A stretch of DNA of 64,000 bases from IMG/VR virus record IMGVR_UViG_3300045988_123629; one strand, 5' to 3'. Positions 8,824-30,844 of the stretch are shown here, one piece after another. Made by a program: the position numbers and the translations under genes. The notes under the pieces were generated by a model. The model saw only the letters and a list, made by a program, of their open reading frames with translations. It did not search any database and was not told the DNA's origin. Position 1 is the stretch's first letter. Every line of letters starts with the position of its first letter. The DNA comes from a virus.

Positions 8824-9340
8824 TTAATTTCCCCCTTTTATCTTAAAAATTTCTAAAACCATTTTTAAATCGCGGTTTCGGTCCTTGCGTTTGATGCCGG
8901 TCGGACCACATTAACCGCCCTTATTTAAGCAAACAAAAATGCTCTTAAATTTTGTTATCATGTTCTTTTACTCCGCAAACGCTAACCCGTAGGTTGCCTT
9001 ACGCTTCCTTCCACCATCAAAGAACAATCAAACTCCATTTAAGAGCATTTTCTCGGTTTGTTTTCAGTATTCAATTTGGTTAGATTTAAATAGGAAATCT
9101 TACTTATTCCGCACCGATCAGCATTAAAATTAACAATAGTGCCAAATCACCTTTAATATAAATATTCCTTACCTATTCTTAATCACTCTTTCGTTGTGGT
9201 TAACGTCTTTTCTTCAGCCTGTTAGGAAAAGAAACCTATCGTTTTAAATAAACAACGCCGTCGCCATCTACGACCTTGCCACTTACTCAGGTACGATAAG
9301 CAGTTTTTGCGATTACTATAAAGTATACTGCCAAATACTT

Positions 9341-9430
9341 TGGTCGGAGATGAGGGAATCGAACCCACTCGAGCGACTGAGCGCACCGGTTTTACAGACC
9401 GGGGTGTCTACCTTATCACGTTAATCTCCG
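9341..9430 (-). tRNA. tRNA-Tyr (anticodon GTA), class II with a long variable arm.
   Basis: Manual fold. Acceptor CGGAGAU/AUCUCCG. Anticodon arm CCGGU-CUGUAAA-ACCGG. T-loop GGTTCGATTCC. CCA is encoded. Confidence 0.7.
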
Positions 9431-9770
9431 AAATATATTTCTTATAATCTTTAATAAATCGCAAATAATCTTCTCGATTATAAGGAATATCATTATATTT
9501 ATTAAAATCATGTGCAAAAGCGCAATAAATTAAAAAATCTAAATGCTTAGATTTTAATTGAACATGCCATTCATAAGAACCATCAAGTCTAGCTCCATAA
9601 GCGCGATGAAATAAAGTATATTCTCCAAACCGCGCTTTATCTGCAAGCACAATTTTAAAATCATCTCGATTATTATGAATATTTAAAACATCATAACCAA
9701 GACCATTTTTAGTAAACTTATGAGAACCACCAAAGGTTTCTTCACAATAATTTAAATAAATATCAAACAT
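9408..9770 (-). CDS. Hypothetical protein (120 aa).
   Basis: ORF from the six-frame track. Its 3' end overlaps the 5' end of tRNA-Tyr by about 20 nt. No recognisable motif. Confidence 0.3.
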   Translation of the reverse strand: MFDIYLNYCEETFGGSHKFTKNGLGYDVLNIHNNRDDFKIVLADKARFGEYTLFHRAYGARLDGSYEWHVQLKSKHLDFLIYCAFAHDFNKYNDIPYNREDYLRFIKDYKKYISEINVIR

Positions 9771-10004
9771 TTTTTATTTGAGGGTTTTAATTAGGTTAAC
9801 CCACAACCTCCGATAGTGTGTCTACTGGACCAAGGAAATACCCGATCGCCGCATTTCGCTCTTTAAAAGATGGACGCTTCTAATCCTACTTCCTATCGTA
9901 TAAAAGGACTTATCAATGACTTTTATACATATTGCCTTTATTACCTTTATAAACAAATTAGCATTACCCAGTGCTACCGCGAGGAGGTTTTGTTTTTAGC
10001 ACCG

Positions 10005-10093
10005 CAGCCCCGCTGGGATTCGAACCCAGAACGACTCCTTCAAAGGGAAAACGGTTTTAGAGACCGCCGTGTTAACCATTACACTACGGGGCA
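10005..10093 (-). tRNA. Putative amber-suppressor tRNA (anticodon CTA, reads UAG). It has a long, class II-like variable arm of about 21 nt and discriminator G73.
   Basis: Manual fold of UGCCCCG-UA-GUGU-AAUGGUUA-ACAC-G-GCGGU-CUCUAAA-ACCGU-(21-nt arm)-CUGGG-UUCGAAU-CCCAG-CGGGGCU-G. The anticodon loop is CUCUAAA, giving anticodon CUA. Pair 1:72 is U.U. CCA is not encoded. Confidence 0.65.
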
Positions 10094-11295: not shown

Positions 11296-11458
11296 TGGTC
11301 CGAGTGGAGCGACTCAAACGCTCGGCCTCCTGAACCCTAGTGGCAACAATGAGATTCGAACTCATAACAGCTATTAACTGACCTCGGGAGCGACCCTCAG
11401 ACATTACCATTCTGTCATCTTGCCAAATCAGGCGTTCTATCAACTGAACTACACCCGG
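11296..11458 (-). tRNA. tRNA-Pro (anticodon TGG) gene interrupted by an insertion of about 90-105 nt in the anticodon loop. The insert itself has a tRNA-like T-arm and acceptor.
   Basis: The 5' part is CCGGGUG-UA-GUUC-AGUUGAUA-GAAC-G-CCUGA-UUU. The 3' part is GGGU-UCAGG-AGGCC-GAGCG-UUUGAGU-CGCUC-CACUCGG-A-CCA. The acceptors pair across 7 bp. The mature loop would be UUUGGGU (anticodon UGG). The insert contains ATGAG-TTCGAAT-CTCAT. Confidence 0.45.
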
Positions 11459-12083: not shown

Positions 12084-12941
12084 TTAAGTAGTTAAAAACG
12101 CATTATAACCTTTTGATTTTAAATCGTTAATTACTTTTATAGCATTTGCTTTGACAGAAAAAGCACCGACTTGAACTTTATAATACTTACCAATCTTACG
12201 AATATAAGCATTTTTATAACCTGCTCCAATAGTATCAGGTAATGCTTTAATTTTCAATAAGAAAGCATCAGCATTAGATTTAGATCCAAAAGCACCAAGT
12301 TGAACACGATAAATAATTTGTGGTTTGAGATAAATAGCCATTACATTATCGACTGCGCGATTGCCCCAATCTTTAGTGATACAAGTTCCATTATGAAGAA
12401 CTTTTGTGCTACCACCGCCATCAAGGTTAATTGCATAATCAACTTTTAATGCTAAAAGTAAATTCTACATTTCCGCGAATGCCATACCTGGCTTTTCAAT
12501 AGCGATTAAATAAATATTAAATTTATTATATGCTAATACTGTTCTACGGGCTTTATAATTTAACTCTTTAGCATAAGTAATTTGAGTTTTTTTACCAGCC
12601 TTAATTAATACTGGATAACCGCTAACAAAATCTTCAAACTTTTCTGTTCCAATTATACCGTATTTCAATTCACCATTAATGATACCAAAACCTTCTTTAT
12701 AAGAAGAAGTGGAATTAATGATTATACCATTGTCCATATAATTAAAACAAGTGCCACCATTATCCATGCTAAAGAAACCACCATTAGTTAAAATAGTAGG
12801 TTTAACCGCACAACTATCATAGTATTGCTTTAAAGTCTAACGCGGTTGAGCGCATAACGCCATATCTAACTTACTAATTTCTTCTTTTGGAATTTCAATA
12901 ATTTTTACATATGAATAATTACTTGGAGAATATATCTTCAT
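12084..12941 (-). CDS. Putative cell-wall hydrolase or lysin. It has a phosphodiester-glycosidase (NAGPA-like) domain followed by two C-terminal SPOR peptidoglycan-binding repeats. It contains two in-frame TAG codons.
   Basis: AAGGAAGG RBS followed by the ATG at 12939-12941. ORFs 12465-12767 and 12084-12341 are in the same frame, and I checked 12342-12464 triplet by triplet. Motifs: TNGGFF and INLDGGGST (NAGPA family), YRVQLGAFGSKSNA and YKVQVGAFSVKANA (SPOR). TAGs are at 12465-12467 and near 12840. Confidence 0.55.
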
Positions 12942-13005
12942 CAAATCACCTTCCTTAATATTTTTAAGGTTTCAATGATTCTTATTAATGAAATATACCC
13001 TCGAT

Positions 13006-13085
13006 TGGTACGGCTACTGGGACTTAAACCCAGATTATGACAGCTTAGAGGGCTGGTGCCATATTCAATTAGGCGATAGCCGTAA
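13006..13085 (-). tRNA. tRNA, probably Arg (anticodon TCT). It has an atypical C at position 33.
   Basis: Acceptor ACGGCUA/UAGCCGU, A73 and CCA. T-arm CUGGG-UUUAAGU-CCCAG. Anticodon arm CCAGC-CCUCUAA-GCUGU. Confidence 0.45.
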
Positions 13086-13279: not shown

Positions 13280-13876
13280 TTATATCTCTTCAGTCTTATT
13301 TTTAAATCTTTGACTATTTAGATACTTATAATTGGGAGTCAAAGAATGACAATTAGGGCACAATAATTCTAAATTATTCAAATCATTGTGAGTTCTATCG
13401 CCATCTTTATGATGAATCTCTAAAGGACATTTCCCAGTTGTTGGATTAATTTCTCCCCAACCACACTTCTAACATTTATTATTATATTTTTTGAAAAGAT
13501 AAGTTCTAATAGAATCAGAAATTTTAGTAGCATTTCCACTTTTCTTTAAACCACTTTCTTCTCCATTAGCAACTTTTTCAATATATTCTTTTCTTTTATA
13601 TTCCTACTAACAAGCATTAGAACAATATTTATACTATCCTTTATGTAATTCTTTACCGCAATTTAAACAATATTTTTCTTTAACTTTTCCTGTAGTATTA
13701 CAAATACATCCGCACGACTTTGTAGCTCCTCTTGTTAAATTGCCAGTTTTTATTTCTTTCTAATTTCCACAATCACATTGGCATAACCAATAAGTACTTC
13801 CATTACGACTTGGTGCTTTTTTAAGAGCAACTAATCTTCCAAATCTTTGACCAGTAATATCTAAAGCATTAGGCAT
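13280..13876 (-). CDS. HNH homing endonuclease with at least 5 in-frame TAG codons.
   Basis: AGGAGTG RBS followed by an ATG at 13874-13876. The stop is TAA at 13280-13282, and I checked that start and stop are in the same frame. Motifs: N-terminal ...YWLCQCDCGN(TAG)KEIKTGNLTRGATKSCGC and HNH core CPLEIHHKDGDRTHNDLNNLELLCPNCH. No ORF of 60 aa or more appears in the track because of the TAGs. Confidence 0.6.
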
Positions 13877-13972
13877 ATTTATATAACACTCCTTTTATTT
13901 TTCTTCTATTATATATAAATATACCTACTTTTAAACTAAGGGTTTAAGTCCAAAATTTTTCTAATAATTAAT

Positions 13973-16496: not shown

Positions 16497-16906
16497 ATCC
16501 TACCTCCTCTGCTTTTCTGGACTTGGAACCAGCCTATGGTAGCATTAGATAGGCGACCGCACTTATCGTTCGCTAGGACAAAACTCGCGCTCATCGCCAA
16601 AGATCAAATCATCAACATCTTTAAACATATCAGACAATCCTCCTTCTTTATTTATTTTTATGAAACAAAATAGAGAGTAGAAAAACAATTCATTTCTATG
16701 GAAGTGAGAGAAAACAACAATCTATATATCAAACGAAAGGGGAAATCAAACAGAAAGATAAGTAAGAAAATGAACTAGATGTAAAAGACTCTCTCTATTG
16801 TATAGTCTTTTGTTTCTATATATTTAAATATATAGAAGAGTAGCCTTTCTAACAGGCATCCCAACAGCCTCGAGCAGCAAAGAGGTTCCTCATTTGTTGG
16901 TCTTTT

Positions 16907-17597: not shown

Positions 17598-18377
17598 TTA
17601 TATGTTTTTCCATTCATCATCAGTGTATAAATTTATAATTTTTTTTGTATTAGGTAAATTATAAGAAATACACCATTTTCTAATGGAATTATCACTTACA
17701 TGATATATATTCGCGATAGAAGTAAAACTTTTATTACGAATCAATTTTTTTAATTTATCACGAGAAGGTCTTTTAATTTTTCGATGTTCTTTAGCAGAAC
17801 ATTTCTAACATTTTTGACCTTTTCCGCTCCACTCTCCACCACATATAGGACAAACTTTTTTTAAAAGTTTTTTCTCTTCTTCTGGTTTATTTTTATCAAA
17901 ACGAGAATAATGTAAAGGATAATTTAATTTTTCATTAAACCAAGTTCTTCCAACATTTATATCTCTAATAGTATCTTTACTAACTTTATATTTTTTAGCT
18001 AATTCCGAATGATTAACTACACCTAACTTATCATTAATTAAAATATTTTGAATATCTTGGACTTCCTAATAATTTAATTTTTGATAAATTACGCGATAAT
18101 CTCCACCTATTGTCTAATTATACTCTGGTTTATAATAATCAATCCAATAAGTTTCTCTACTATTTAGATTATCAATTTCACATTCTTCTAACACTTCAAA
18201 TATAAAATTAGAAACACCATATTTTCTGAAACTTTGATATAAGGGATAATTATAGCTTTTACTCTTTTCATCTTGGGAGCTATATATATGATTTTCCCAA
18301 CGTTCTGCTATATTTCTTGACTATCCAATATAACAATGATTATTTATTTTATTAGTAATTTTATAAATTCCTATCAT
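17598..18377 (-). CDS. GIY-YIG homing endonuclease with about 5 in-frame TAG codons.
   Basis: AGGAGAT RBS followed by an ATG at 18375-18377. The stop is TAA at 17598-17600, in frame. Motif GIYKITNKINNHCYIG(TAG)SRNIAERWENH, which is GIY...YIG...R...H. There is a C-terminal Cys cluster (CPICGG...C(TAG)KC). Confidence 0.55.
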
Positions 18378-18460
18378 ATTACCATCTCCTTACACTATAA
18401 TTAAAATTTTATTTAAGATAATTATAATTTTTCGACCTCGAAAGTATTTAGGTGATGATA

Positions 18461-20714: not shown

Positions 20715-21206
20715 CATAAAAGAAGGACTTTTTAAAATCCTTACTTTATATATTTATTATATTATATTTTTTTTAAAAAATCAACTTTTCTCTTTTACCC
20801 AAATTTTTTTATTTTCTTTTTTCTTTCTTCATTTTATATAAATATTATATAATATTTTTTATAAAATGTCAATAAGGTCTTTGAATTGGCATTAAATCAT
20901 CTTCTGAAAGAAGCCACTTTTCACCATGCTCATCAAGGACTTCAATCTGATAATTTAATACTCGAATGACAGTACATTTAAGATACTGTCTACGATAACA
21001 ACGACCACGATAAGGGACAAAACAATAAGAATTACCAACTTCAATATTCATTATTTATTTTCTCCTTTCTCAACTTTCTATATATATTATATTATATATT
21101 TTTAATAAAATCAAAAAAGTTCTTTTTGTTTAAGTAGATTTAACAAATTTACCACAATTTTAGTCGAAATCAGGAACACCGCGTGAAGGTATTGTGGATA
21201 GTTCCC

Positions 21207-21288
21207 GCAGGCGCCGTAGGATTCGAACCCACACCGCAAGGTTTTGGAGACCCGCATGCGACCGTTACACCAGACGCCTATAAAACAA
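21207..21288 (-). tRNA. tRNA-Trp (anticodon CCA).
   Basis: Acceptor AGGCGUC/GGCGCCU and G73. Anticodon arm CGGGU-CUCCAAA-ACCUU. T-arm GUGGG-UUCGAAU-CCUAC. Confidence 0.55.
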
Positions 21289-21302
21289 GACCTTAACTTT
21301 GT

Positions 21303-21383
21303 CCGAAAAATGGATTTGAACCATTAACTTAATCTTGAAGGATTATGACCTAACCTTTAGTCTATTCTGGAAGTTATTTTTGC
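21303..21383 (-). tRNA. Irregular Glu-type tRNA with a non-canonical anticodon loop. The best fold gives a 6-nt loop CUUCAA, so the anticodon is ambiguous (UUC or UCA).
   Basis: Acceptor UCCAGAA/UUUCGGA with one mismatch. Glu-like D-arm GAC-UAAAGGUUAG-GUC. Perfect 5-bp stem UAAUC/GAUUA enclosing CUUCAA. T-arm AAUGG-UUCAAAU-CCAUU. It is the first gene after the promoter at about 21390-21440. Confidence 0.4.
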
Positions 21384-21463
21384 TGTAAAGGTCTTTCTTT
21401 ATTTTATAAATATATTATATATTATTTTTTTAAAAATGTCAAAAAAATTTTTAATTGGTTATC

Positions 21464-24161
21464 AATTTCCATGTTGTACTATCTGTTTTTACATATACTC
21501 TACTGTCAGGATGAGCCATATAATAAGTTAAATATACTGAACTATTTGCTGTACTATCACGATAAGGCTTAACATATATATAATAAGTAGTTCCAGCCGT
21601 AACTTTATAACAAATACCAAAATTAGCTCCAGTACCGCCATATTTTTTTGCATAATCATCATCGCTAGCTAAAATATTAGAAGAAGGCTATCCACTATCA
21701 TTAAGAGAAGTAATACTTGATGTTAAATAACCATAAGTGTCTATTGAAGAATTAGAATAAACAATAAAGTCCCCTGAAATAGTAGGAGTAAAAGAAAAAT
21801 ATCGACAAGTGCTTGGAGATAAAGTCCAAGAAGAGGTGTTCTATTTGTTATAAGTGGGAGCAGATATTGACACAGTAGAATAAGCCCAATTTGCTATAGA
21901 CTAAATAGTAATTCTTATATAGCCATTTCCACCATGACCTGTTTCAGATGACCCTGTTGGAGAAATAAATGAAGAATTACCTGCGATAGTTGATGCAGAA
22001 GTTAAATAATAGTTACTATTTAACAAACAACCAGAAGGATAATTAGAAGCAGTGGATGAGGTATATACATAACCAGAACCTCCGCCACCATGATATTTTG
22101 TTCCACCCTGCATATTAGAGAGTGAAACAATTCCACCATACCAGCCGCCTCCTCCAGCTCCATTTATATTATAAGAAGAACTGGATGAATATCCATTTCC
22201 TCCTACTCCAAAGCTATTTCCTGAAGTTTGTGTACTTAGACCTGGACTATTAGACCCTGCTACACTACTGGTGCCCCCACCGGCATCTCCGCTTTCTGTA
22301 TTAGATCCCCAAGAGGTAGCTCCGCCTCCGCCGGCGACAATTACACGAGCGTAGAGAGAGTTTGATCCAATACGAATATCAGAAGCTCCTCCACCACCAC
22401 CGCTTCGAGACATAGATCCGGAGACTCCTCCAGTACCGCCTCCATTAAATCCTCCTGTATAATCATTAGCAGAAGAAGAAATACAACCTCCTTTTCCACC
22501 AGTATATAAATATACCGTTTGAGAGGAAGAAAGAGTTAAAATTCCCGTTGAATATCCACCTTTTCCTCCTATAGCTCCCGAAGAAGCGTCAAAACTAGAG
22601 TTACTATTAGCACCATTTCCTCCCTAAGCCCCCCAACATTCTAATTTATAAGTACCTTTTGGAAGGGCAATATTTTTATAAGTTCCACTATAAGGACAAT
22701 TTAATATATCTCCTGTTTTTAAAGAAGAAGAAGAAGGAATTGAAGAAGTTAAGTCGTAAGTTGCCATGTAACGTCTCCTCCTTTCCAAGTTGTACTATCT
22801 GTTTTTATATATATAGCTTTAGTAGGAGCATAAGTATTAGAATTGATTTTTATATTTAAAGGAGATAATACTGTAATACGAATATATCCATTTTGCCCTC
22901 CAGGATTAGTTTTACTATAGCCTATCGTAGTAGAGGCATTTGTTAAATAATAATTATTGTTTAACAAACAGCCAGAAGGATAATTAGAAGCAGTTGATGA
23001 AGTATATACGTAGCCAGAGCCTCCCCCATTATAAGTTCTATAATCAGCAGAGCTATCACTAACATTAGTAGAAGCACCACCGCCATACCAGCCACCACCA
23101 CCACCACCGGGACCATAATTATAATTGGTAGATCCACTAGCATCAGCACCTTGACCAAAAGATCCATTTGTTCCTGCTTTAGTCTATGTAGCCTTATATT
23201 CTTCAACCGCAGAGTTACCCGTCAATCCGCCACCCTATTTAATAGAAGAATTACTTTCTCCCGCGCCACCACCACCACCACCGGCAACAATTACACGGGC
23301 ATAAAGAGAGTCTTGACCTACGCGGATATCGGAAGCTCCTCCGCCTCCTCCACCTGATGTGTAAGCAGAAGTATACCATCTAATCCTAGAGCTACCTCCT
23401 CCATTAAATCCACCATTAACTATCTTACCTTTTTCACTATCACTTGAATAACTACCATGCCCCCCGGTGTATAAATAAATAGTGGTAGGAACTGGTAAAG
23501 AAAGAATTCCTATAGAATATCCTCCTGTTCCACCCCAATAACTATTTTTTGAACTCGCAGGAGTATAAGTAGTATTACTTTCCTATTTCTAAATCTAAAA
23601 ATAAACTTCTTCATTATCCACGGAATTTGAGCTATCTTTAGTATAAGTCATTACGATAGTAGATCCTGATGATAAAGAATAAGTGCCAGTAGTAGTAAGA
23701 GAACTTGATCCAGAAACCGCATTTAAAACTGTATTTCCTCCAACAGTTAAAGTGACTTTATCATAGCTTGCTTCAGTTTTATAATAATATGAAAATTTAT
23801 AAGTCCCCCCAGAAGTACAAGTTAATGTAGTTGTAGCAGTACTTGAATCTATTCCTCCGTTAGTAGCTATCCAGTCATTTCCGTCTTGACGAAAATAATA
23901 ATTTGAATCATTAACAGTAAAATAACTGGTCGCATTATGAGTTCCTATATATATCCATGAAGTTGTTGTTGATGAAGTTAAAGAACCAGAATAACCAATT
24001 CCGCCATAGCCACCCCAACATTCTAATTGATAATTTCCCGCTGGAAGTTTTACTGGATTTACCGCTCCTGAATAGCTACTATTAATAATATCTCCTGGAA
24101 TAAATTTAATAGAAGAATAATCTGTTATAGAAGTTCCAGAAGGATTATAAGTATTTGGCAT
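21464..24161 (-). CDS. Large Gly/Ser/Thr-rich tail fibre or adhesin-like protein with many in-frame TAG codons. It may comprise one very large gene or two genes.
   Basis: GAGGAGG RBS before the ATG at 24159-24161. ORFs 23595-24161, 22749-22967 and 21901-22413 and the stretches between them are coding in register and interrupted only by TAG. For example, VYF(TAG)I(TAG)K(TAG)ESNTTY at 23583-23597 was verified by triplets. Repeats GGGGGA.DIR.G..SLYARVIVAGGGG are present. The end coordinate is approximate. Confidence 0.4.
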
Positions 24162-25169: not shown

Positions 25170-26603
25170 TTAACTAAAATTATGTATAAAGTCTTTTAAA
25201 GACCTAAAATTATTAACTTTTTCTTCACCAGCATCTCTAAAGCACCAAGGACATAAATACATATCAGTCCCTTTATGATAGTGAATATCTTCTGTATAAT
25301 ATAAATTATTACAACATTCGCATCGTTTACAATAAGTATCCGCACAACTATCGCAAACTAATTCATTCTCATCGCCTACGGAATTTGCTTCATCAAGAAT
25401 TATACGAGAACCGCAACAAGCGCAATAACCATAGTTATCGTCTTCATTTACTCCATAACTGAATTCACAATCTCCGCATCGCATATATTCTCCACTTTCA
25501 ATTATAGTTTTACCGCATTGTAAACAAGGAACATCACCACCAATAGACCAATGAGGAAGATCAGTCTTGTCAAATGGATAATAATACAATTTTAAACTAT
25601 AAATAGGCAAATAGCAAGAAGAATAAAGCAAATCATTATATTGAAGAGTATGCTCACCAATATCTTCAACGATATCACTAATAGGATATAAACGAGACAA
25701 AATAGGAATCCATGTTTCAGATAATCCGATAGTCTCTTCTCCAAAAGGAGTGCTACTCATCCTATTAGAGACAGTAGTAATACCTCCGTCTACCCATTCA
25801 CGCAACTGAAAAGTCTTATCAAAAGTATTGATAATATCTTTAATTTTAATTAAAGCATTAGTTGTCATAAAAGGATATTGGCGACCAGCCATCAAACCGC
25901 GTCGTTTATCTTCCATGTAAAGAAGCATACGCCATTTCTTAGAATTCCAAAGAACGTCTTCGGGGAAATGCGGAAGTTTCTGATTCTCCGCTCCGCGCAA
26001 ATAGCAAATAAAAGTGCTTCTATCTACCATGTAAGATAAATTTCCTGCTCTGTATTCACCATCAAGCGCATGACAAGAACGCCAATTATAAGTATTTTCA
26101 CTCACGCTCAGAAAATCCAAAGGATGAACTGAGAAACATAATGTTCCCTCAATCTTGTCCTCTTGGATAATACGACTTGCGTAATTTTGAATATCTTCCA
26201 AAGAGCGCGGATTCTCTTCAAAATACTTAAAAGCCTTAACTAATTTCATTCCTCTTGGAATCTTTTTATCCTTATAAAAATAAGTATCTATAACTGTATT
26301 ATTAAAGAATCCTTCTTTATTTACTGAAATAAAATCTTTTAAGTCTTCATTATTATAAGTATAATTAATTGTTTCAAGAAACTCCTCAAGACGATGCTCT
26401 TTAGTTTTATCATCTAAAGAAAAAGATACCTTTTCCGGCCATTCATAAATTAAATGACCGTGAAAAAATTTAATTAAGTCTTTTTTGGCTTCGAGGAATC
26501 TTTCGAATAGTTCTTCTGTTTTTGGATTACTGATTCCTTGGGAGTAACTGATGACTTTGTTGAACTGTTCTCTAATGCTTTCGATGTCGAAGTCATATGA
26601 CAT
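25170..26603 (-). CDS. Large hypothetical protein with a C-terminal multi-zinc-ribbon cluster. Paralogue of 29111-30715.
   Basis: GGAGG RBS 9 nt upstream of the ATG at 26601-26603 (MSYDFDIES...). The shared core with 29111-30715 is TLCFSVHPLDFLSVSEN..W.SCH...GEYR.G....NSKKWR.L. At least 5 CxxC pairs lie at the C-terminus. Confidence 0.5.
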   Translation of the reverse strand: MSYDFDIESIREQFNKVISYSQGISNPKTEELFERFLEAKKDLIKFFHGHLIYEWPEKVSFSLDDKTKEHRLEEFLETINYTYNNEDLKDFISVNKEGFFNNTVIDTYFYKDKKIPRGMKLVKAFKYFEENPRSLEDIQNYASRIIQEDKIEGTLCFSVHPLDFLSVSENTYNWRSCHALDGEYRAGNLSYMVDRSTFICYLRGAENQKLPHFPEDVLWNSKKWRMLLYMEDKRRGLMAGRQYPFMTTNALIKIKDIINTFDKTFQLREWVDGGITTVSNRMSSTPFGEETIGLSETWIPILSRLYPISDIVEDIGEHTLQYNDLLYSSCYLPIYSLKLYYYPFDKTDLPHWSIGGDVPCLQCGKTIIESGEYMRCGDCEFSYGVNEDDNYGYCACCGSRIILDEANSVGDENELVCDSCADTYCKRCECCNNLYYTEDIHYHKGTDMYLCPWCFRDAGEEKVNNFRSLKDFIHNFS

Positions 26604-27580
26604 TTGACTAATCCTCCAATACAATCTTTACAATACTCGCTGTGTGGGTTCGCAGGGTCAATTTCAAATGCCTCTTCACACTCCGCACACCATTCAACAT
26701 TACTGGGAATACAATCAGGACAATAAAAACATGTATGTCCATCTAATCCCTTTACTGGAAATGTTTCATACTCACTAAATAGCTGACCGCATCCTCTACA
26801 ATGAACGTAGAATCCATCGCCATCAGTTGGAAAATTCTTACAAATATTATCGAACCAAATATTATGATAATTACGATAATACTCAAAATTAGGGATATCT
26901 TTCTCTTGGAGCATGCGGATTACCTTATTAATCGTATCAAAAAGAGCGCCCGCATTTAATGTTTCAACATGACTATGTTCATTCTTGTATCCAACTGAAA
27001 GATTTACACCACAAATTTTCCATTCAGGACATAAAACACTAATATCACTAAACGTGCCAAAATCCTCTACAAATCCAAAAGATTCAATGTAATCAATGAA
27101 TTTAGGATTGTAAAGGTCGTAAAATACACAATCATTTGTGCCTTGTCTATCCAACTGAATAATATATTTCAAATCAGGAAATGGACACTCAAAATATTGT
27201 AATACTAATGCTTCGGCGCCTAATCCACCAATTTCTTCATCAGTGGTAAAAATAATAGAAGGGCGCAAAGATGTATTCCTCAAAATATGAAGAATCGCAT
27301 ATACTCCTGCTCTATCATCTGCACCAAGACCTTCAGGTGACCAAAGCACATTTTTTCTTGTGTCATAATATAAATCTTTGACCGGTTTCTCAAACACGGT
27401 ATCAAGATGAGCCACTAAGGCAATCGGAATATCGCCAACCGCACAAACATACTCTTTAGTAATAACTACTTCAGAATATTTAGATTTCAATACATCGGCA
27501 ACATATTCCCTTAACTCATCTTGCGTCGAGCGAACCAGATATTCAAATAACCAAAGTTCATTAGTTTTAAAACCTCTCAC
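26474..27580 (-). CDS. M42/M20-type metallopeptidase-like domain fused to a C-terminal Cys-rich zinc-ribbon region.
   Basis: Metal-ligand motifs AHLDTV, GADDRAGV and TTDEEIGGLGA in the N-terminal 200 aa. Cluster CRGCGQ...CFYCPDC...CAECEE...CKDCIGG at the C-terminus. The 3' end overlaps the next gene by about 130 nt in another frame. Confidence 0.5.
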   Translation of the reverse strand: MRGFKTNELWLFEYLVRSTQDELREYVADVLKSKYSEVVITKEYVCAVGDIPIALVAHLDTVFEKPVKDLYYDTRKNVLWSPEGLGADDRAGVYAILHILRNTSLRPSIIFTTDEEIGGLGAEALVLQYFECPFPDLKYIIQLDRQGTNDCVFYDLYNPKFIDYIESFGFVEDFGTFSDISVLCPEWKICGVNLSVGYKNEHSHVETLNAGALFDTINKVIRMLQEKDIPNFEYYRNYHNIWFDNICKNFPTDGDGFYVHCRGCGQLFSEYETFPVKGLDGHTCFYCPDCIPSNVEWCAECEEAFEIDPANPHSEYCKDCIGGLVKCHMTSTSKALENSSTKSSVTPKESVIQKQKNYSKDSSKPKKT

Positions 27581-29110: not shown

Positions 29111-30715
29111 TTAAAAAATCAAAGAAGGTCTTTGATTTGGGTTAGTGCCATTCACCCAAGAAATAAATTCCTCTTCATTAATGTCAAAGAGGTCTCTGCC
29201 CTTTTCCGTGAGAGTTTCTCCATCGACATAATAATTAGAGCGCCAACCGTCTCTTTCTTCTTCAATTTCACCAGTGAAGAAGGTTTTTACTTTTTTATCT
29301 CCACAACAATCCCAACAAATATCCGCATAGAATCCAACTGGCTTCTTTTGGAATCGAAGACGGATTTGCTTCATATCATCATAATCTTTACGAACTTCAC
29401 AACAAGGACAAACTTCTGTGCTTTCATCATAACAATAAGCGCAGTAAGTTTTTCCATCGACATTATAAGTGTCATCGACATAAACAATATCGCCACACTT
29501 ATCGCACTTTACTGCACCCGAGCAACTTGGACAGATAGTCATTTCCGCGTTATTCTCTCTATCATCGAAGAGAGAATCATCAAGAAGCTCTCCACAACAC
29601 ATACACTCAGATTCACCCGAGTAGTTAAGATCAATGTTTTCGTCCGTAGGAATCTTAGTGGAAACGTAAGCATTATGCTCTGAATAGATATCGTTATACA
29701 TGAAATTGGTATCAAGATTGAAATAAATATTTCTATCAAACTCACCAATAATATTATTACTGTAATTCTGAATCTTATTTAAATACTTGGTATAAGGACC
29801 AAAGCCAAGATTCTGTTCAGCGAGCTTCTTGATCCAAGCGAGACAAATACTTTCAAGGTTATCATTACAATAAGGATAACCCTTGATACCAAGGATAAGA
29901 CTTTCATCTACGATGAAAAGTTCACGCCAGCGCTTGCTATTCCACATCACAGGCTTACCAACCTTATAACAAATTTCCATGTCCTTATCAGATTTAAGAT
30001 AAGCTTCAAGGATAATGGGAGAATTCATCATCTCAACGGTTCCCTGACGATATTCGCCACCACCATTCTGCCATCTCATACAAGAATCCCAACCGCAATT
30101 ATTATCACTCATAGTGATATAATCAAGAGGATGAACAGAAAGACAAAGTTCACCAGAAATATTTTTCTGATTGAGGAACTGAGAATGAGCGATACGGAAC
30201 TTTTCATAAACATCGCGGTCAATCTCCAAAATATCACTCAGCTTACCAAGCATCTTACTAAGCTTCATGCCCTTATTAATCATAAGAGTTTTATTATTAT
30301 AAGTGAATTTAAAAGATTCACCATCATAGATGTTAGACATTAAAGGTTCAACATCCAAAAGACTTGCCAAATTAAGATACTGAGTATTAGAGATGGTTGT
30401 CCTGAGATAAAGATCTCTTACCTTATTATTAAAGGTATTTCGGAATTCGAAACCATCACCATTTCTACCGAAATAATCATAATAATCATCACTCATCTCT
30501 TCATAAGAACGAGAATAACTTACCTTACGAGAAATGATAAGATTATCTCCCAACATCTTATAAAGATTCTGCTTATTATAAGCCCAAAAGCGGAGAATGT
30601 AGTCGAGAGATGCCTTCATATCGGAACTATCTCCGCCGAGGCCCGCAAAATTACGAATATACTCTTCAATCTTTTCGCAATCTTCTTTGGAAAGGAGCTC
30701 AAATAAATTAGCCAT
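29111..30715 (-). CDS. Large hypothetical protein with a C-terminal multi-zinc-ribbon cluster. Paralogue of 25170-26603.
   Basis: 534-aa ORF. Shared core ELCLSVHPLDYITMSDNNCGWDSC...GGGEYRQG...WNSKRWREL. Many CxxC pairs (CMCCGE, CPSCSG, CDKCGD, CAYCYD, CPCCE, CWDCCGD). Confidence 0.5.
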   Translation of the reverse strand: MANLFELLSKEDCEKIEEYIRNFAGLGGDSSDMKASLDYILRFWAYNKQNLYKMLGDNLIISRKVSYSRSYEEMSDDYYDYFGRNGDGFEFRNTFNNKVRDLYLRTTISNTQYLNLASLLDVEPLMSNIYDGESFKFTYNNKTLMINKGMKLSKMLGKLSDILEIDRDVYEKFRIAHSQFLNQKNISGELCLSVHPLDYITMSDNNCGWDSCMRWQNGGGEYRQGTVEMMNSPIILEAYLKSDKDMEICYKVGKPVMWNSKRWRELFIVDESLILGIKGYPYCNDNLESICLAWIKKLAEQNLGFGPYTKYLNKIQNYSNNIIGEFDRNIYFNLDTNFMYNDIYSEHNAYVSTKIPTDENIDLNYSGESECMCCGELLDDSLFDDRENNAEMTICPSCSGAVKCDKCGDIVYVDDTYNVDGKTYCAYCYDESTEVCPCCEVRKDYDDMKQIRLRFQKKPVGFYADICWDCCGDKKVKTFFTGEIEEERDGWRSNYYVDGETLTEKGRDLFDINEEEFISWVNGTNPNQRPSLIF

Positions 30716-30844
30716 ATCTTATCAACCTCTTTTTAATATCTTTCTTAACTTTATATATATATTATAATATATTTTTTTATAAAAATAAAGAAAGCCCTTT
30801 GCGGTCAATCAAAGGGCTTTCTTGCGAAAGGGGTTTTATTATAT

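Follow-up and report, generated by a model that had tools for sequence, protein, structure and literature searches.

The 64,000-nucleotide stretch of viral DNA analyzed here (IMG/VR virus record IMGVR_UViG_3300045988_123629; hereafter, the window) carries a cluster of 21 to 24 tRNA and tRNA-like genes on its minus strand, between 9.3 and 21.4 kb. We focused on one gene of this cluster, an amber suppressor tRNA with the anticodon CUA, which we propose inserts Gln at UAG codons and displays a Gln anticodon-like loop in a long variable arm (Table 1). ARAGORN reported a tRNA with this anticodon at 10004-10093 on the minus strand, and the Rfam tRNA model (RF00005) matched 10005-10093 on the same strand with 57.8 bits (E value, 1.5e-10), both in agreement with a sequence-only reading of the window that had placed a suppressor tRNA there. 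Written 5' to 3', the RNA is UGCCCCG UA GUGU AAUGGUUA ACAC G GCGGU CUCUAAA ACCGU UUUCCCUUUGAAGGAGUCGUU CUGGG UUCGAAU CCCAG CGGGGCU G. The D stem is fully paired (G10-C25, U11-A24, G12-C23, and U13-A22) and closes an 8-nt D loop, AAUGGUUA. Other elements listed by the sequence-only reading, namely, U1.U72, G2-C71, G73, the D stem GUGU/ACAC, the anticodon arm GCGGU-CUCUAAA-ACCGU, and a variable arm of about 21 nt, are all present. As a check for another triplet in the anticodon, we used the covariance-model alignment to RF00005, which again places CUA at positions 34 to 36 and handles 17 to 18 nt of the variable region as an insertion.

ARAGORN labeled the gene “Pyl” because its anticodon is CUA and for no other reason. 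We rejected a tRNA-Pyl, as the RNA forms an ordinary cloverleaf with a 21-nt variable region and not a Pyl-type fold. Folded by itself as a single sequence, the suppressor gives no significant structure (z = -1.79); support for the fold comes instead from the covariance model and from covariation within a family of related tRNAs. In close relatives of the phage (loci L018, L069, L076, and L086; 87 to 98% identical), the gene differs by one D-loop base. Its best relative within the window is the phage's own tRNA-Trp, as had been noted previously; that gene exists and has the anticodon arm CGGGU-CUCCAAA-ACCUU, although it ends at 21279 and not at 21288 as first given. Neither ARAGORN nor Rfam found another CUA tRNA in the window's whole tRNA cluster, and as the sole CUA tRNA of the cluster it is thus the UAG decoder, unless another lies beyond the window. 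We regard it as nearly certain that the suppressor is a genuine tRNA and reads UAG.

To place the long arm in context, we scanned IMG/VR twice with sequence patterns, once with a fixed anticodon arm and once with the anticodon stem left free, and together the scans recovered about 60 distinct CUA tRNAs with long variable regions. Forty-eight long-armed CUA tRNAs constitute a single family with a class I D arm of 4 bp and a loop of the form UAAYGG.... In a MAFFT alignment of 40 family members, the variable region, 21 nt in the window, forms a stem-loop with a covarying helix (GC in 14, UA in 8, CG in 4, and UG in 4; CG in 22 and GC in 12; CG in 25 and GC in 8 at successive pairs), and this helix was lost when the partners were slid against each other as a control. 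The variable stems are unrelated in sequence, including UCC/GGA, GCC/GGC, GCG/CGC, UGC/GCA, CACGG/CCGUG, and CUAGGG/CCCUAG, among others. The loop, by comparison, is always C/U-U-[C/U]-U-G-A-N in the 48 distinct members, and its position 34' is only C or U, which yields CUG or UUG, the two Gln anticodons.

The loop in the window, CUUUGAA, is identical to the anticodon loop of a real phage tRNA-Gln(UUG), and all of CUUUGAA, CUUUGAC, CUCUGAA, and CUCUGAC serve as anticodon loops of genuine tRNA-Gln genes in the same phage loci. The arm thus reproduces a cognate anticodon loop, the defining feature of a pseudo-anticodon in a variable arm. Among tRNAs of at least 82 nt from the fetched loci, the motif occurs at the variable position in 51 of 60 CUA tRNAs and in 4 of 171 others (Ser, Leu, Tyr, etc.); the latter 4 are chance matches. 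The sequence-only reading missed this key feature, the presence of a Gln anticodon loop at the tip of the long arm. Its concern that the arm could be an alignment artifact or an intron is dispelled by the covarying hairpin in at least 48 distinct genes. Based on these comparisons, we are confident that the arm is a selected hairpin that presents a Gln anticodon-like loop.

In its predicted structure, the suppressor has a class I and not a class II body, to which a short hairpin has been added as the long arm. The class II body proposed from the sequence does not stand, given the 4-bp D stem that includes U13-A22, the 8-nt D loop, and the existence of near-identical class I tRNAs that have no hairpin. 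The characteristic D-arm features of class II tRNAs (a 3-bp D stem, an unpaired 13:22, and a larger D loop) and the Ser element C11-G24 are absent. Class I CUA tRNAs from L056, L022, and L048 share nearly the same 5' half with the long-armed tRNA from L007 and lack its hairpin. Class I and long-armed CUA genes also occur side by side in individual phages (L004, L051, L059, and L068, as well as L022/L038 and L077), and in the L004-type contigs the two genes are in tandem, 3 nt apart after an encoded CCA. Hairpin-free tRNAs with the same 5' half and tandem pairs of this kind argue that the long arm is an added module. The premise that Gln-type amber suppressors of phages are all class I tRNAs without such an arm also has to be abandoned, as the long-armed type is common in IMG/VR.

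We compared the suppressor with the identity set of glutaminyl-tRNA synthetase (GlnRS) established for Escherichia coli. A weak or unpaired 1:72 (here U1.U72), G2-C71, G10, G73, U35, and A37 are all found, confirming the earlier observation that the acceptor and anticodon features overlap this set. G3-C70, G36, and U38 are not found, and the suppressor has C3-G70, A36, and A38 at these positions; G36 in its full loop context occurs only in the variable-arm loop. Across the 40 aligned family members, 1:72 is U-A in 16, a mismatch in 18, and G-C or C-G in only one, and 2:71 is invariably G2-C71 or G.U; most have G73, with A73 in one subgroup. The acceptor end of the CUA family is therefore Gln-like, whereas 16 of 18 members of a corresponding family with the anticodon UCA have a Trp-like A1-U72 instead.

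CUA tRNAs with true class II bodies also exist (L017/L066/L074, L049, L159, L181, and L190). They have a 3-bp D stem, a long D loop, and a variable stem of 5 to 8 bp, with no Gln pseudo-anticodon, and are candidate amber suppressors for Ser, Leu, or Tyr, the type of tRNA that the sequence-only reading envisaged. Separately, ARAGORN reported that class I tRNAs for Cys, Met, Arg, His, Thr, and Trp in the fetched viral loci often have variable hairpins of 10 to 20 nt whose loops are not their own anticodons. Extended hairpins across these isotypes suggest that extra variable arms are a general habit of these phage tRNAs.

Three independent comparisons of homologous codons indicate that UAG very probably encodes Gln in this phage, which corresponds to the known genetic code 15. 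Between 1 and 33 kb, 56 TAGs lie in frame within 20 of 35 minus-strand open reading frames (ORFs), 33 of the 35 ORFs terminate at TAA, and protein domains detected with Pfam run intact across the in-frame TAGs. The TAG-bearing products include Mtd_N tail fibers, a Flg_new-repeat protein, glycine-rich proteins, a NAGPA-SPOR wall hydrolase, and GIY-YIG and HNH endonucleases. The ORFs from 33 to 64 kb are short and stop at TAA or TGA. ORF coverage of the 44- to 64-kb region is higher when TGA is read through, and we considered TGA recoding there and rejected it; the short, ATG-started minus-strand ORFs with TAA or TGA stops fit early genes that use the standard code.

Among the close relatives (87 to 98% identical), four of five coding swaps between TAG and a sense codon lead to CAA or CAG and none leads to a Ser codon. 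Two of the swaps between TAG and CAA or CAG require two base changes, which argues for synonymy and not single mutations. For distant codon comparisons, we used about 40 more distant viral loci. The column of the TAG within the ECWGA-TAG-GG motif of a glycine-rich protein is CAA in 68, CAG in 39, and TAG in 2 homologous viral loci, so that all 107 sense codons encode Gln. The corresponding column of YIG-TAG-S in the GIY-YIG homing endonuclease is TAG in 6, CAG in 5, CAA in 2, and AAA in 3 homologues. Where relatives carry TAG, the residue in the window is Q in 9 of 40 cases, far beyond the Q content of the proteins concerned.

A likelihood test that covered all TAG columns, and drew the substitution pattern of each amino acid from the same alignments, gave log-likelihoods of -179.1 for Q, -192.8 for S, -238 for W, -245.3 for Y, and -248.8 for L; Q thus ranked first, 13.7 nats above S in second place. 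In a version based on majority residues, Q was 24 nats above the next residue and 31 above S. For the NAGPA-SPOR hydrolase (an endolysin), 110 of 120 database homologues have Q in the column of the TAG at 12465-12467 and 90 of 120 in that of the TAG at 12837-12839. A homologue without in-frame TAGs has CAG and GAA, respectively, at these columns, and a recoded homologue places its own TAGs on Q residues of the window at 4 of 6 sites. With TAG read as Gln, the Ser, Trp, Tyr, and Leu readings are disfavored. The sequence-only reading had allowed either Ser or Gln at TAG; homology at the TAG positions upholds Gln, while the Ser alternative falls, because swaps, conserved columns, and likelihoods all align these positions with Gln and not with Ser. 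Two endonuclease ORFs lie between tRNA genes on the minus strand, an HNH ORF (13280-13894) with five in-frame TAGs and the GIY-YIG ORF (17598-18389) with four, and both would thus depend on the suppressor.

We tested the prediction that UGA suppressors inserting Trp should display CCA in their variable arm. Scanning for a UCA anticodon loop combined with a long variable region recovered about 32 distinct tRNAs, most of which have Trp-like ends (A1-U72 and G73). Their variable arm has a covarying 5-bp helix and an invariant UCCAA loop, typically CUCCAAA, a sequence that 38 genuine phage tRNA-Trp genes have as their anticodon loop. Of 62 distinct CUA tRNAs with a long arm, 52 have the YUGA loop and none has the CCAA loop; of 32 such UCA tRNAs, 29 have the CCAA loop and none has the YUGA loop. 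The nominal Fisher values of this cross-table are about 1e-16 and 3e-21, which are not true probabilities because the sequences are related. Members of the UCA family in IMG/VR, including L245, L246, L258, L268, L275, L292, and L304, have an arm that copies a tRNA-Trp anticodon arm almost completely (e.g., CGGGU-CUCCAAA-ACCCG). A comparable scan for ochre suppressors (anticodon UUA and a long arm) yielded only a few tRNAs, which resembled class II and had no pseudo-anticodon that could be read. Given that the anticodon in the loop matches the reassigned amino acid in two unrelated identity systems, we prefer a role in aminoacylation to a relic or a structural role.

The explanation that we favor as a whole, and consider reasonably probable, is that this is a Gln-inserting class I suppressor whose variable arm serves as a natural pseudo-anticodon for charging by the host. 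GlnRS and tryptophanyl-tRNA synthetase (TrpRS) depend strongly on the anticodon, with G36 a major determinant of Gln identity, and the E. coli CUA suppressors supE and su+7 are charged with Gln, albeit less well. A CUA anticodon would have cost the phage tRNA G36, the major glutaminylation identity nucleotide, and the variable arm would offer a complete Gln anticodon loop to the anticodon-binding part of the host enzyme. This enzyme could be GlnRS or, if the host has no GlnRS, a nondiscriminating glutamyl-tRNA synthetase followed by GatCAB. Charging with Gln would thereby be efficient and specific, and the decoding of UAG on the ribosome would be left to the canonical arm, so that the decoding anticodon and the identity anticodon would be separated within one tRNA.

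The arm would exit the core atop the anticodon stem, with a length approximating that of an anticodon arm in the Trp family and a shorter stem (2 to 6 bp) in the Gln family. Its unpaired linkers could, speculatively, let it lie beside the anticodon arm or replace it by alternative stacking. That the synthetase reads the variable-arm loop as an identity element is, in our judgment, fairly probable. To much the same degree, we lean toward a broader proposal, that phage suppressors have evolved a second, “identity” anticodon (the Gln anticodon YUG in suppressors of UAG and the Trp anticodon CCA in those of UGA), which would let host GlnRS and TrpRS charge tRNAs that read stop codons. A search for a phage-encoded GlnRS or other class I synthetase close to the tRNAs found no ORF with both HIGH and KMSKS motifs in the window and about 230 fetched loci, and Pfam identified no synthetase among 19 of the larger window ORFs.

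Several points weigh against this proposal, the chief of them geometric. A GlnRS monomer spans the inside of the L-shaped tRNA from the acceptor end to the anticodon, and an arm of 3 to 4 bp that departs from the tRNA core may not reach its anticodon-binding domain without rearrangement. The hairpin in the window is itself weak, with three Watson-Crick pairs. CUA tRNAs with a weak 1:72 pair are already glutaminylated in E. coli (supE and su+7), and the arm may therefore be unneeded. Family members share descent, so the counts given above are not independent events, and both the anticodon loop and the T loop were fixed in the patterns used to collect the loci. Furthermore, a second suppressor tRNA could sit outside the 64-kb window, and the host hints consist of weak Bacillota binning, too weak to indicate whether GlnRS is present. 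Finally, for the engineered pseudo-anticodon in a variable arm, the enzyme itself had to be fused to an additional anticodon-binding domain (Mukai 2020, PMC7590224).

Part of this evidence would also fit a suppressor that inserts Gln but whose arm plays no part in charging. In that case, the arm could be a relic of a tandem duplication of an ancestral tRNA-Gln anticodon arm, or it could serve another purpose: it might aid folding or stability, bind a phage factor or a modification enzyme, or act as a decoy for anticodon nucleases of the host. We consider this possible but rather unlikely. A duplication is expected to leave two similar loops, and the variable loop does resemble the tRNA's own anticodon loop except at position 36 (CUCUAAA versus CUYUGAA). 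Phage class I tRNAs for Cys, Met, Arg, His, and Thr likewise bear variable hairpins with loops other than their own anticodons, CUA tRNAs with a weak 1:72 pair are glutaminylated with no arm at all (established for supE and su+7), and class I CUA suppressors occur alongside long-armed ones in the same phages. However, a relic would decay, whereas here the stems have turned over wholly by compensatory change with YUG-A fixed and position 34' only C or U. Nor would a nuclease decoy or a stabilizing element predict a loop that matches the reassigned amino acid in both the Gln and the Trp families.

Other readings change the amino acid or the decoding itself. A class II, Ser-type suppressor, in which seryl-tRNA synthetase reads the long arm and G73 and UAG means Ser, would explain the 21-nt variable region, G73, and G2-C71; moreover, one version of the likelihood test ranks Ser second, the proteins are Ser rich, and some TAG columns align with Ser. 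We nevertheless regard it as very improbable. The margin of Q over S is 13.7 to 31 nats, TAG falls on columns in which Gln is strictly conserved, and a Ser codon appears in none of the five coding swaps. The D arm is that of a class I tRNA (4 bp, with U11-A24 instead of C11-G24), the variable stem of 3 to 4 bp has long unpaired flanks, unlike those of the phage's own tRNA-Ser and tRNA-Leu, and, the 4 chance matches aside, none of 171 genuine class II tRNAs has the loop motif. There is just as little to recommend a Trp-derived suppressor charged by TrpRS, with UAG read as Trp, although tRNA-Trp is the closest relative in the window, G73 is present, and the two genes share an unusual 3' order of G73, C, and a candidate theta ribozyme (a minimal ribozyme like that of hepatitis delta virus [HDV]). 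Among suppressors associated with theta ribozymes, 19% were predicted to be of the Trp isotype (Kienbeck et al. 2024, PMC10879173). Here, W is among the poorest fits at the TAG columns (-238, compared with -179 for Q), the acceptor ends of the family are U1-A72 or mismatched, as in tRNA-Gln, and not A1-U72 as in the UCA family, and the arm displays a Gln and not a Trp anticodon. An improbable but slightly more tenable alternative is a two-headed tRNA in which either hairpin stacks as the anticodon arm, so that it decodes both UAG and CAA/CAG or is charged in one conformer and decodes in the other. The extra arm of the UCA family is a full copy of the tRNA-Trp anticodon arm with 5 bp and a 7-nt loop, the linkers flanking the arm are unpaired and of variable-loop length, and ARAGORN found no separate tRNA-Gln gene in the window. 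On the other hand, the extra stem of the CUA family usually has only 2 to 4 bp, and the covariance model and ARAGORN both take the CUA hairpin as the anticodon arm. We know of no tRNA that works in this way.

The 3' ends of the suppressor and tRNA-Trp set them apart from most other tRNA genes in the window, which encode CCA; both end with G73-C followed by an HDV-like sequence. For the suppressor, C74 (10004) is the only 3' nucleotide encoded. The Rfam model HDV-F-prausnitzii matches 9949-10003 with 26.1 bits, below its gathering score of 44 (E value, 0.014 in a search of 851 nt and 0.22 in a search of 13 kb). The parts of the candidate ribozyme are P1 (GGUGCU/AGCAC), P2 (AAACAAA/UUUGUUU), P3 (ACC/GGU), L3 (UCCUCGC), and GCUAA with a candidate catalytic C, and the predicted cleavage site is 5' of the G at 10003, one nucleotide past the discriminator. 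A theta ribozyme acting in cis would cut after C74 and leave ...G73-C74, in which case end repair and completion of CCA must follow. The candidate next to tRNA-Trp was missed by Rfam but has a readable P1 (GGGAAC/GUUCC), P2 (CCACAAU/AUUGUGG), P3 (ACC/GGU), and L3 (UUCACGC). In the close relative L086, tRNA-Trp ends with an encoded CCA and has no ribozyme, which indicates that the presence of this element is polymorphic. A sub-threshold match to a type P1 twister ribozyme lies elsewhere in the cluster (Table 1).

The close relatives of the phage are on contigs of about 160 to 195 kb and, like the other relatives, were obtained via tRNA and protein patterns in IMG/VR; no match emerged when 12 kb were compared by megablast with 50,697 deposited phage genomes. 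In a genome collection, near-identical tRNAs were confined to contigs of phage size that had been binned with “Mollicutes,” Erysipelotrichaceae, and Bacillota metagenome-assembled genomes (MAGs). Three of these, L219 (a 163,874-bp contig in a MAG named “uncultured Mollicutes bacterium”) and L222 and L224 (in Erysipelotrichaceae MAGs), encode the same or a sister long-armed suppressor and are probably misbinned phage genomes.

The minus strand of the cluster also includes less regular tRNA-like genes. One at 21301-21371 (44 bits in Rfam; “tRNA-???” in ARAGORN) has a 5-bp anticodon stem, a 6-nt loop CUUCAA (UCA), and no CCA; in the relatives L086 and L121 its loop is AUUUAA (UUA), and both UCA and UUA are complementary to stop codons. 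Two others were recognized by Rfam only: 13009-13083 (46 bits), with the loop CCUCUAA (C33; UCU if read normally), the T loop UUUAAGU, and an encoded CCA, and 11341-11424 (35 bits), which is 84 nt long and forms no clean cloverleaf. An ORF at 9222-9773 on the minus strand enters the 5' part of the tRNA-Tyr gene at 9341-9430 on the same strand, and the real end of its protein is uncertain because its first in-frame TAG lies inside the tRNA. Two paralogous pairs of minus-strand genes were also found. The pair 21451-22818 and 22749-24161 encodes TAG-rich, glycine-rich proteins with an ALK_LTK_GRD domain, and the pair 25170-26627 and 29111-30718 encodes TAG-free proteins of about 480 to 530 amino acids with Cys-rich C termini and no Pfam match.

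Table 1. Positions of the suppressor tRNA, its parts, in-frame TAG codons, and candidate ribozymes in the window
Feature	Position	Strand	Details and basis
Amber suppressor tRNA(CUA)	10005..10093	minus	89 nt up to discriminator G73 (10005); ARAGORN and Rfam RF00005
Anticodon CUA	10058..10060	minus	Loop CUCUAAA, stem GCGGU/ACCGU; covariance-model alignment
Variable region, 21 nt, UUUCCCUUUGAAGGAGUCGUU	10030..10050	minus	Covariance-model alignment
Variable-arm hairpin UCC-[CUUUGAA]-GGA, 3 bp plus possible C.A closing pair	10036..10048	minus	Family covariation
Putative pseudo-anticodon UUG (Gln) in variable-arm loop	10041..10043	minus	Loop table
In-frame TAG, ECWGA-TAG-GG, glycine-rich protein (ALK_LTK_GRD, Pfam), ORF 21451-22818	22624..22626	minus	Homologue codons
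In-frame TAG, GIY-YIG motif YIG-TAG-S, homing endonuclease, ORF 17598-18389	18321..18323	minus	Pfam GIY-YIG, homologue codons
In-frame TAG, NAGPA-SPOR cell-wall hydrolase, ORF 12084-12971	12465..12467	minus	Homologue columns
Further in-frame TAG, same hydrolase, ORF 12084-12971	12837-12839	minus	Homologue columns
Minimal HDV-like (theta) ribozyme candidate	9949..10003	minus	Sub-threshold Rfam match and helices read from sequence
Second theta/HDV-like ribozyme candidate	21152-21206	minus	Directly 3' of tRNA-Trp(CCA) 21208-21279, in place of encoded CCA
Type P1 twister match, sub-threshold	16501-16551	minus	39 bits versus gathering score of 67, E value 1e-5; between tRNA-Ser and tRNA-Phe

To our knowledge, the only reassignments seen in phages that recode against a standard-code host are TAG to Gln and TGA to Trp. 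How host GlnRS and TrpRS charge phage suppressors is a stated open question (Borges et al. preprint), and a built-in pseudo-anticodon, if confirmed, would answer it. The loop of the variable arm would then provide a sequence rule that predicts the amino acid of a recoded stop codon, and these tRNAs would represent the first example in nature of a design known until now only from engineering for genetic code expansion, as well as ready-made, evolved scaffolds for efficient suppressor tRNAs. Annotation is also corrected here for tRNAs of 88 to 91 nt that are labeled “Pyl” or “undetermined” and can be confused with Ser-type suppressors.

As a decoder, the suppressor is of a known kind, a code 15 amber suppressor, but the long-armed form with a Gln pseudo-anticodon and its Trp parallel seems undescribed in the open literature. 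It shares the CUA anticodon and the alignment of TAG with Gln with the suppressors of code 15 phages (crAss-like, Lak, Agate, phAss-1, and others). This phage and those phages alike have their in-frame TAGs concentrated in genes for late, structural, and lysis functions and keep the standard code for early genes, and in both cases no phage synthetase is found nearby, so that charging by the host is presumed. The code 15 suppressors have been published as ordinary tRNAs typed with tRNAscan isotype models, whereas the one described here has a 21-nt variable region with a Gln pseudo-anticodon; the recoded-phage papers that we checked mention neither a long variable arm nor its loop. In E. coli, supE (a tRNA-Gln with CUA) and su+7 (a tRNA-Trp with CUA that is charged with Gln) share CUA, U35, G73, a weak 1:72, and G2-C71 with the phage tRNA, and they illustrate how UAG suppressors drift to Gln identity. 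They differ in being plain class I tRNAs with a 5-nt variable loop that are weaker GlnRS substrates through the loss of G36, and the phage tRNA adds a loop that has G36 in context. With the class II tRNAs of bacteria (Ser, Leu, and Tyr), the suppressor shares a hairpin-forming variable region longer than 10 nt and, with tRNA-Ser, G73; unlike them, it has a class I D arm, a shorter variable stem, long unpaired flanks, a conserved anticodon-specific loop, and Gln decoding.

Theta ribozymes are minimal HDV-like ribozymes found 3' of phage tRNAs, about one in five of which is a suppressor (Kienbeck et al. 2024, Nat Commun 15:1559, PMC10879173). The candidate 3' of the suppressor resembles them in starting within 1 nt of the tRNA 3' end, in the lack of an encoded CCA, and in the gut phage context (PMC10879173), and it shares L3 UCCUCGC with theta and genomic HDV ribozymes, with P1, P2, and P3 all readable. 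It differs in that the Rfam match is below threshold, and in the window only the suppressor and tRNA-Trp make use of a candidate ribozyme. For a variable-arm anticodon mimic, or second anticodon, in phage suppressors, our search of the open-access literature returned only an engineered example, and a description elsewhere is possible. In that example, an amber suppressor with a pseudo-anticodon in its variable arm showed a modest gain in charging and specificity (Mukai 2020, PMC7590224). The principle is the same in that the variable arm copies the cognate anticodon arm to recruit the anticodon-binding domain of the synthetase, but the engineered system is synthetic, built on an allo-tRNA chassis, and served by histidyl-tRNA synthetase with an extra fused anticodon-binding domain (PMC7590224). 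In contrast, the phage tRNA is natural, is probably specific for Gln (with a sister family specific for Trp), and presumably works with the unmodified enzyme of its host.

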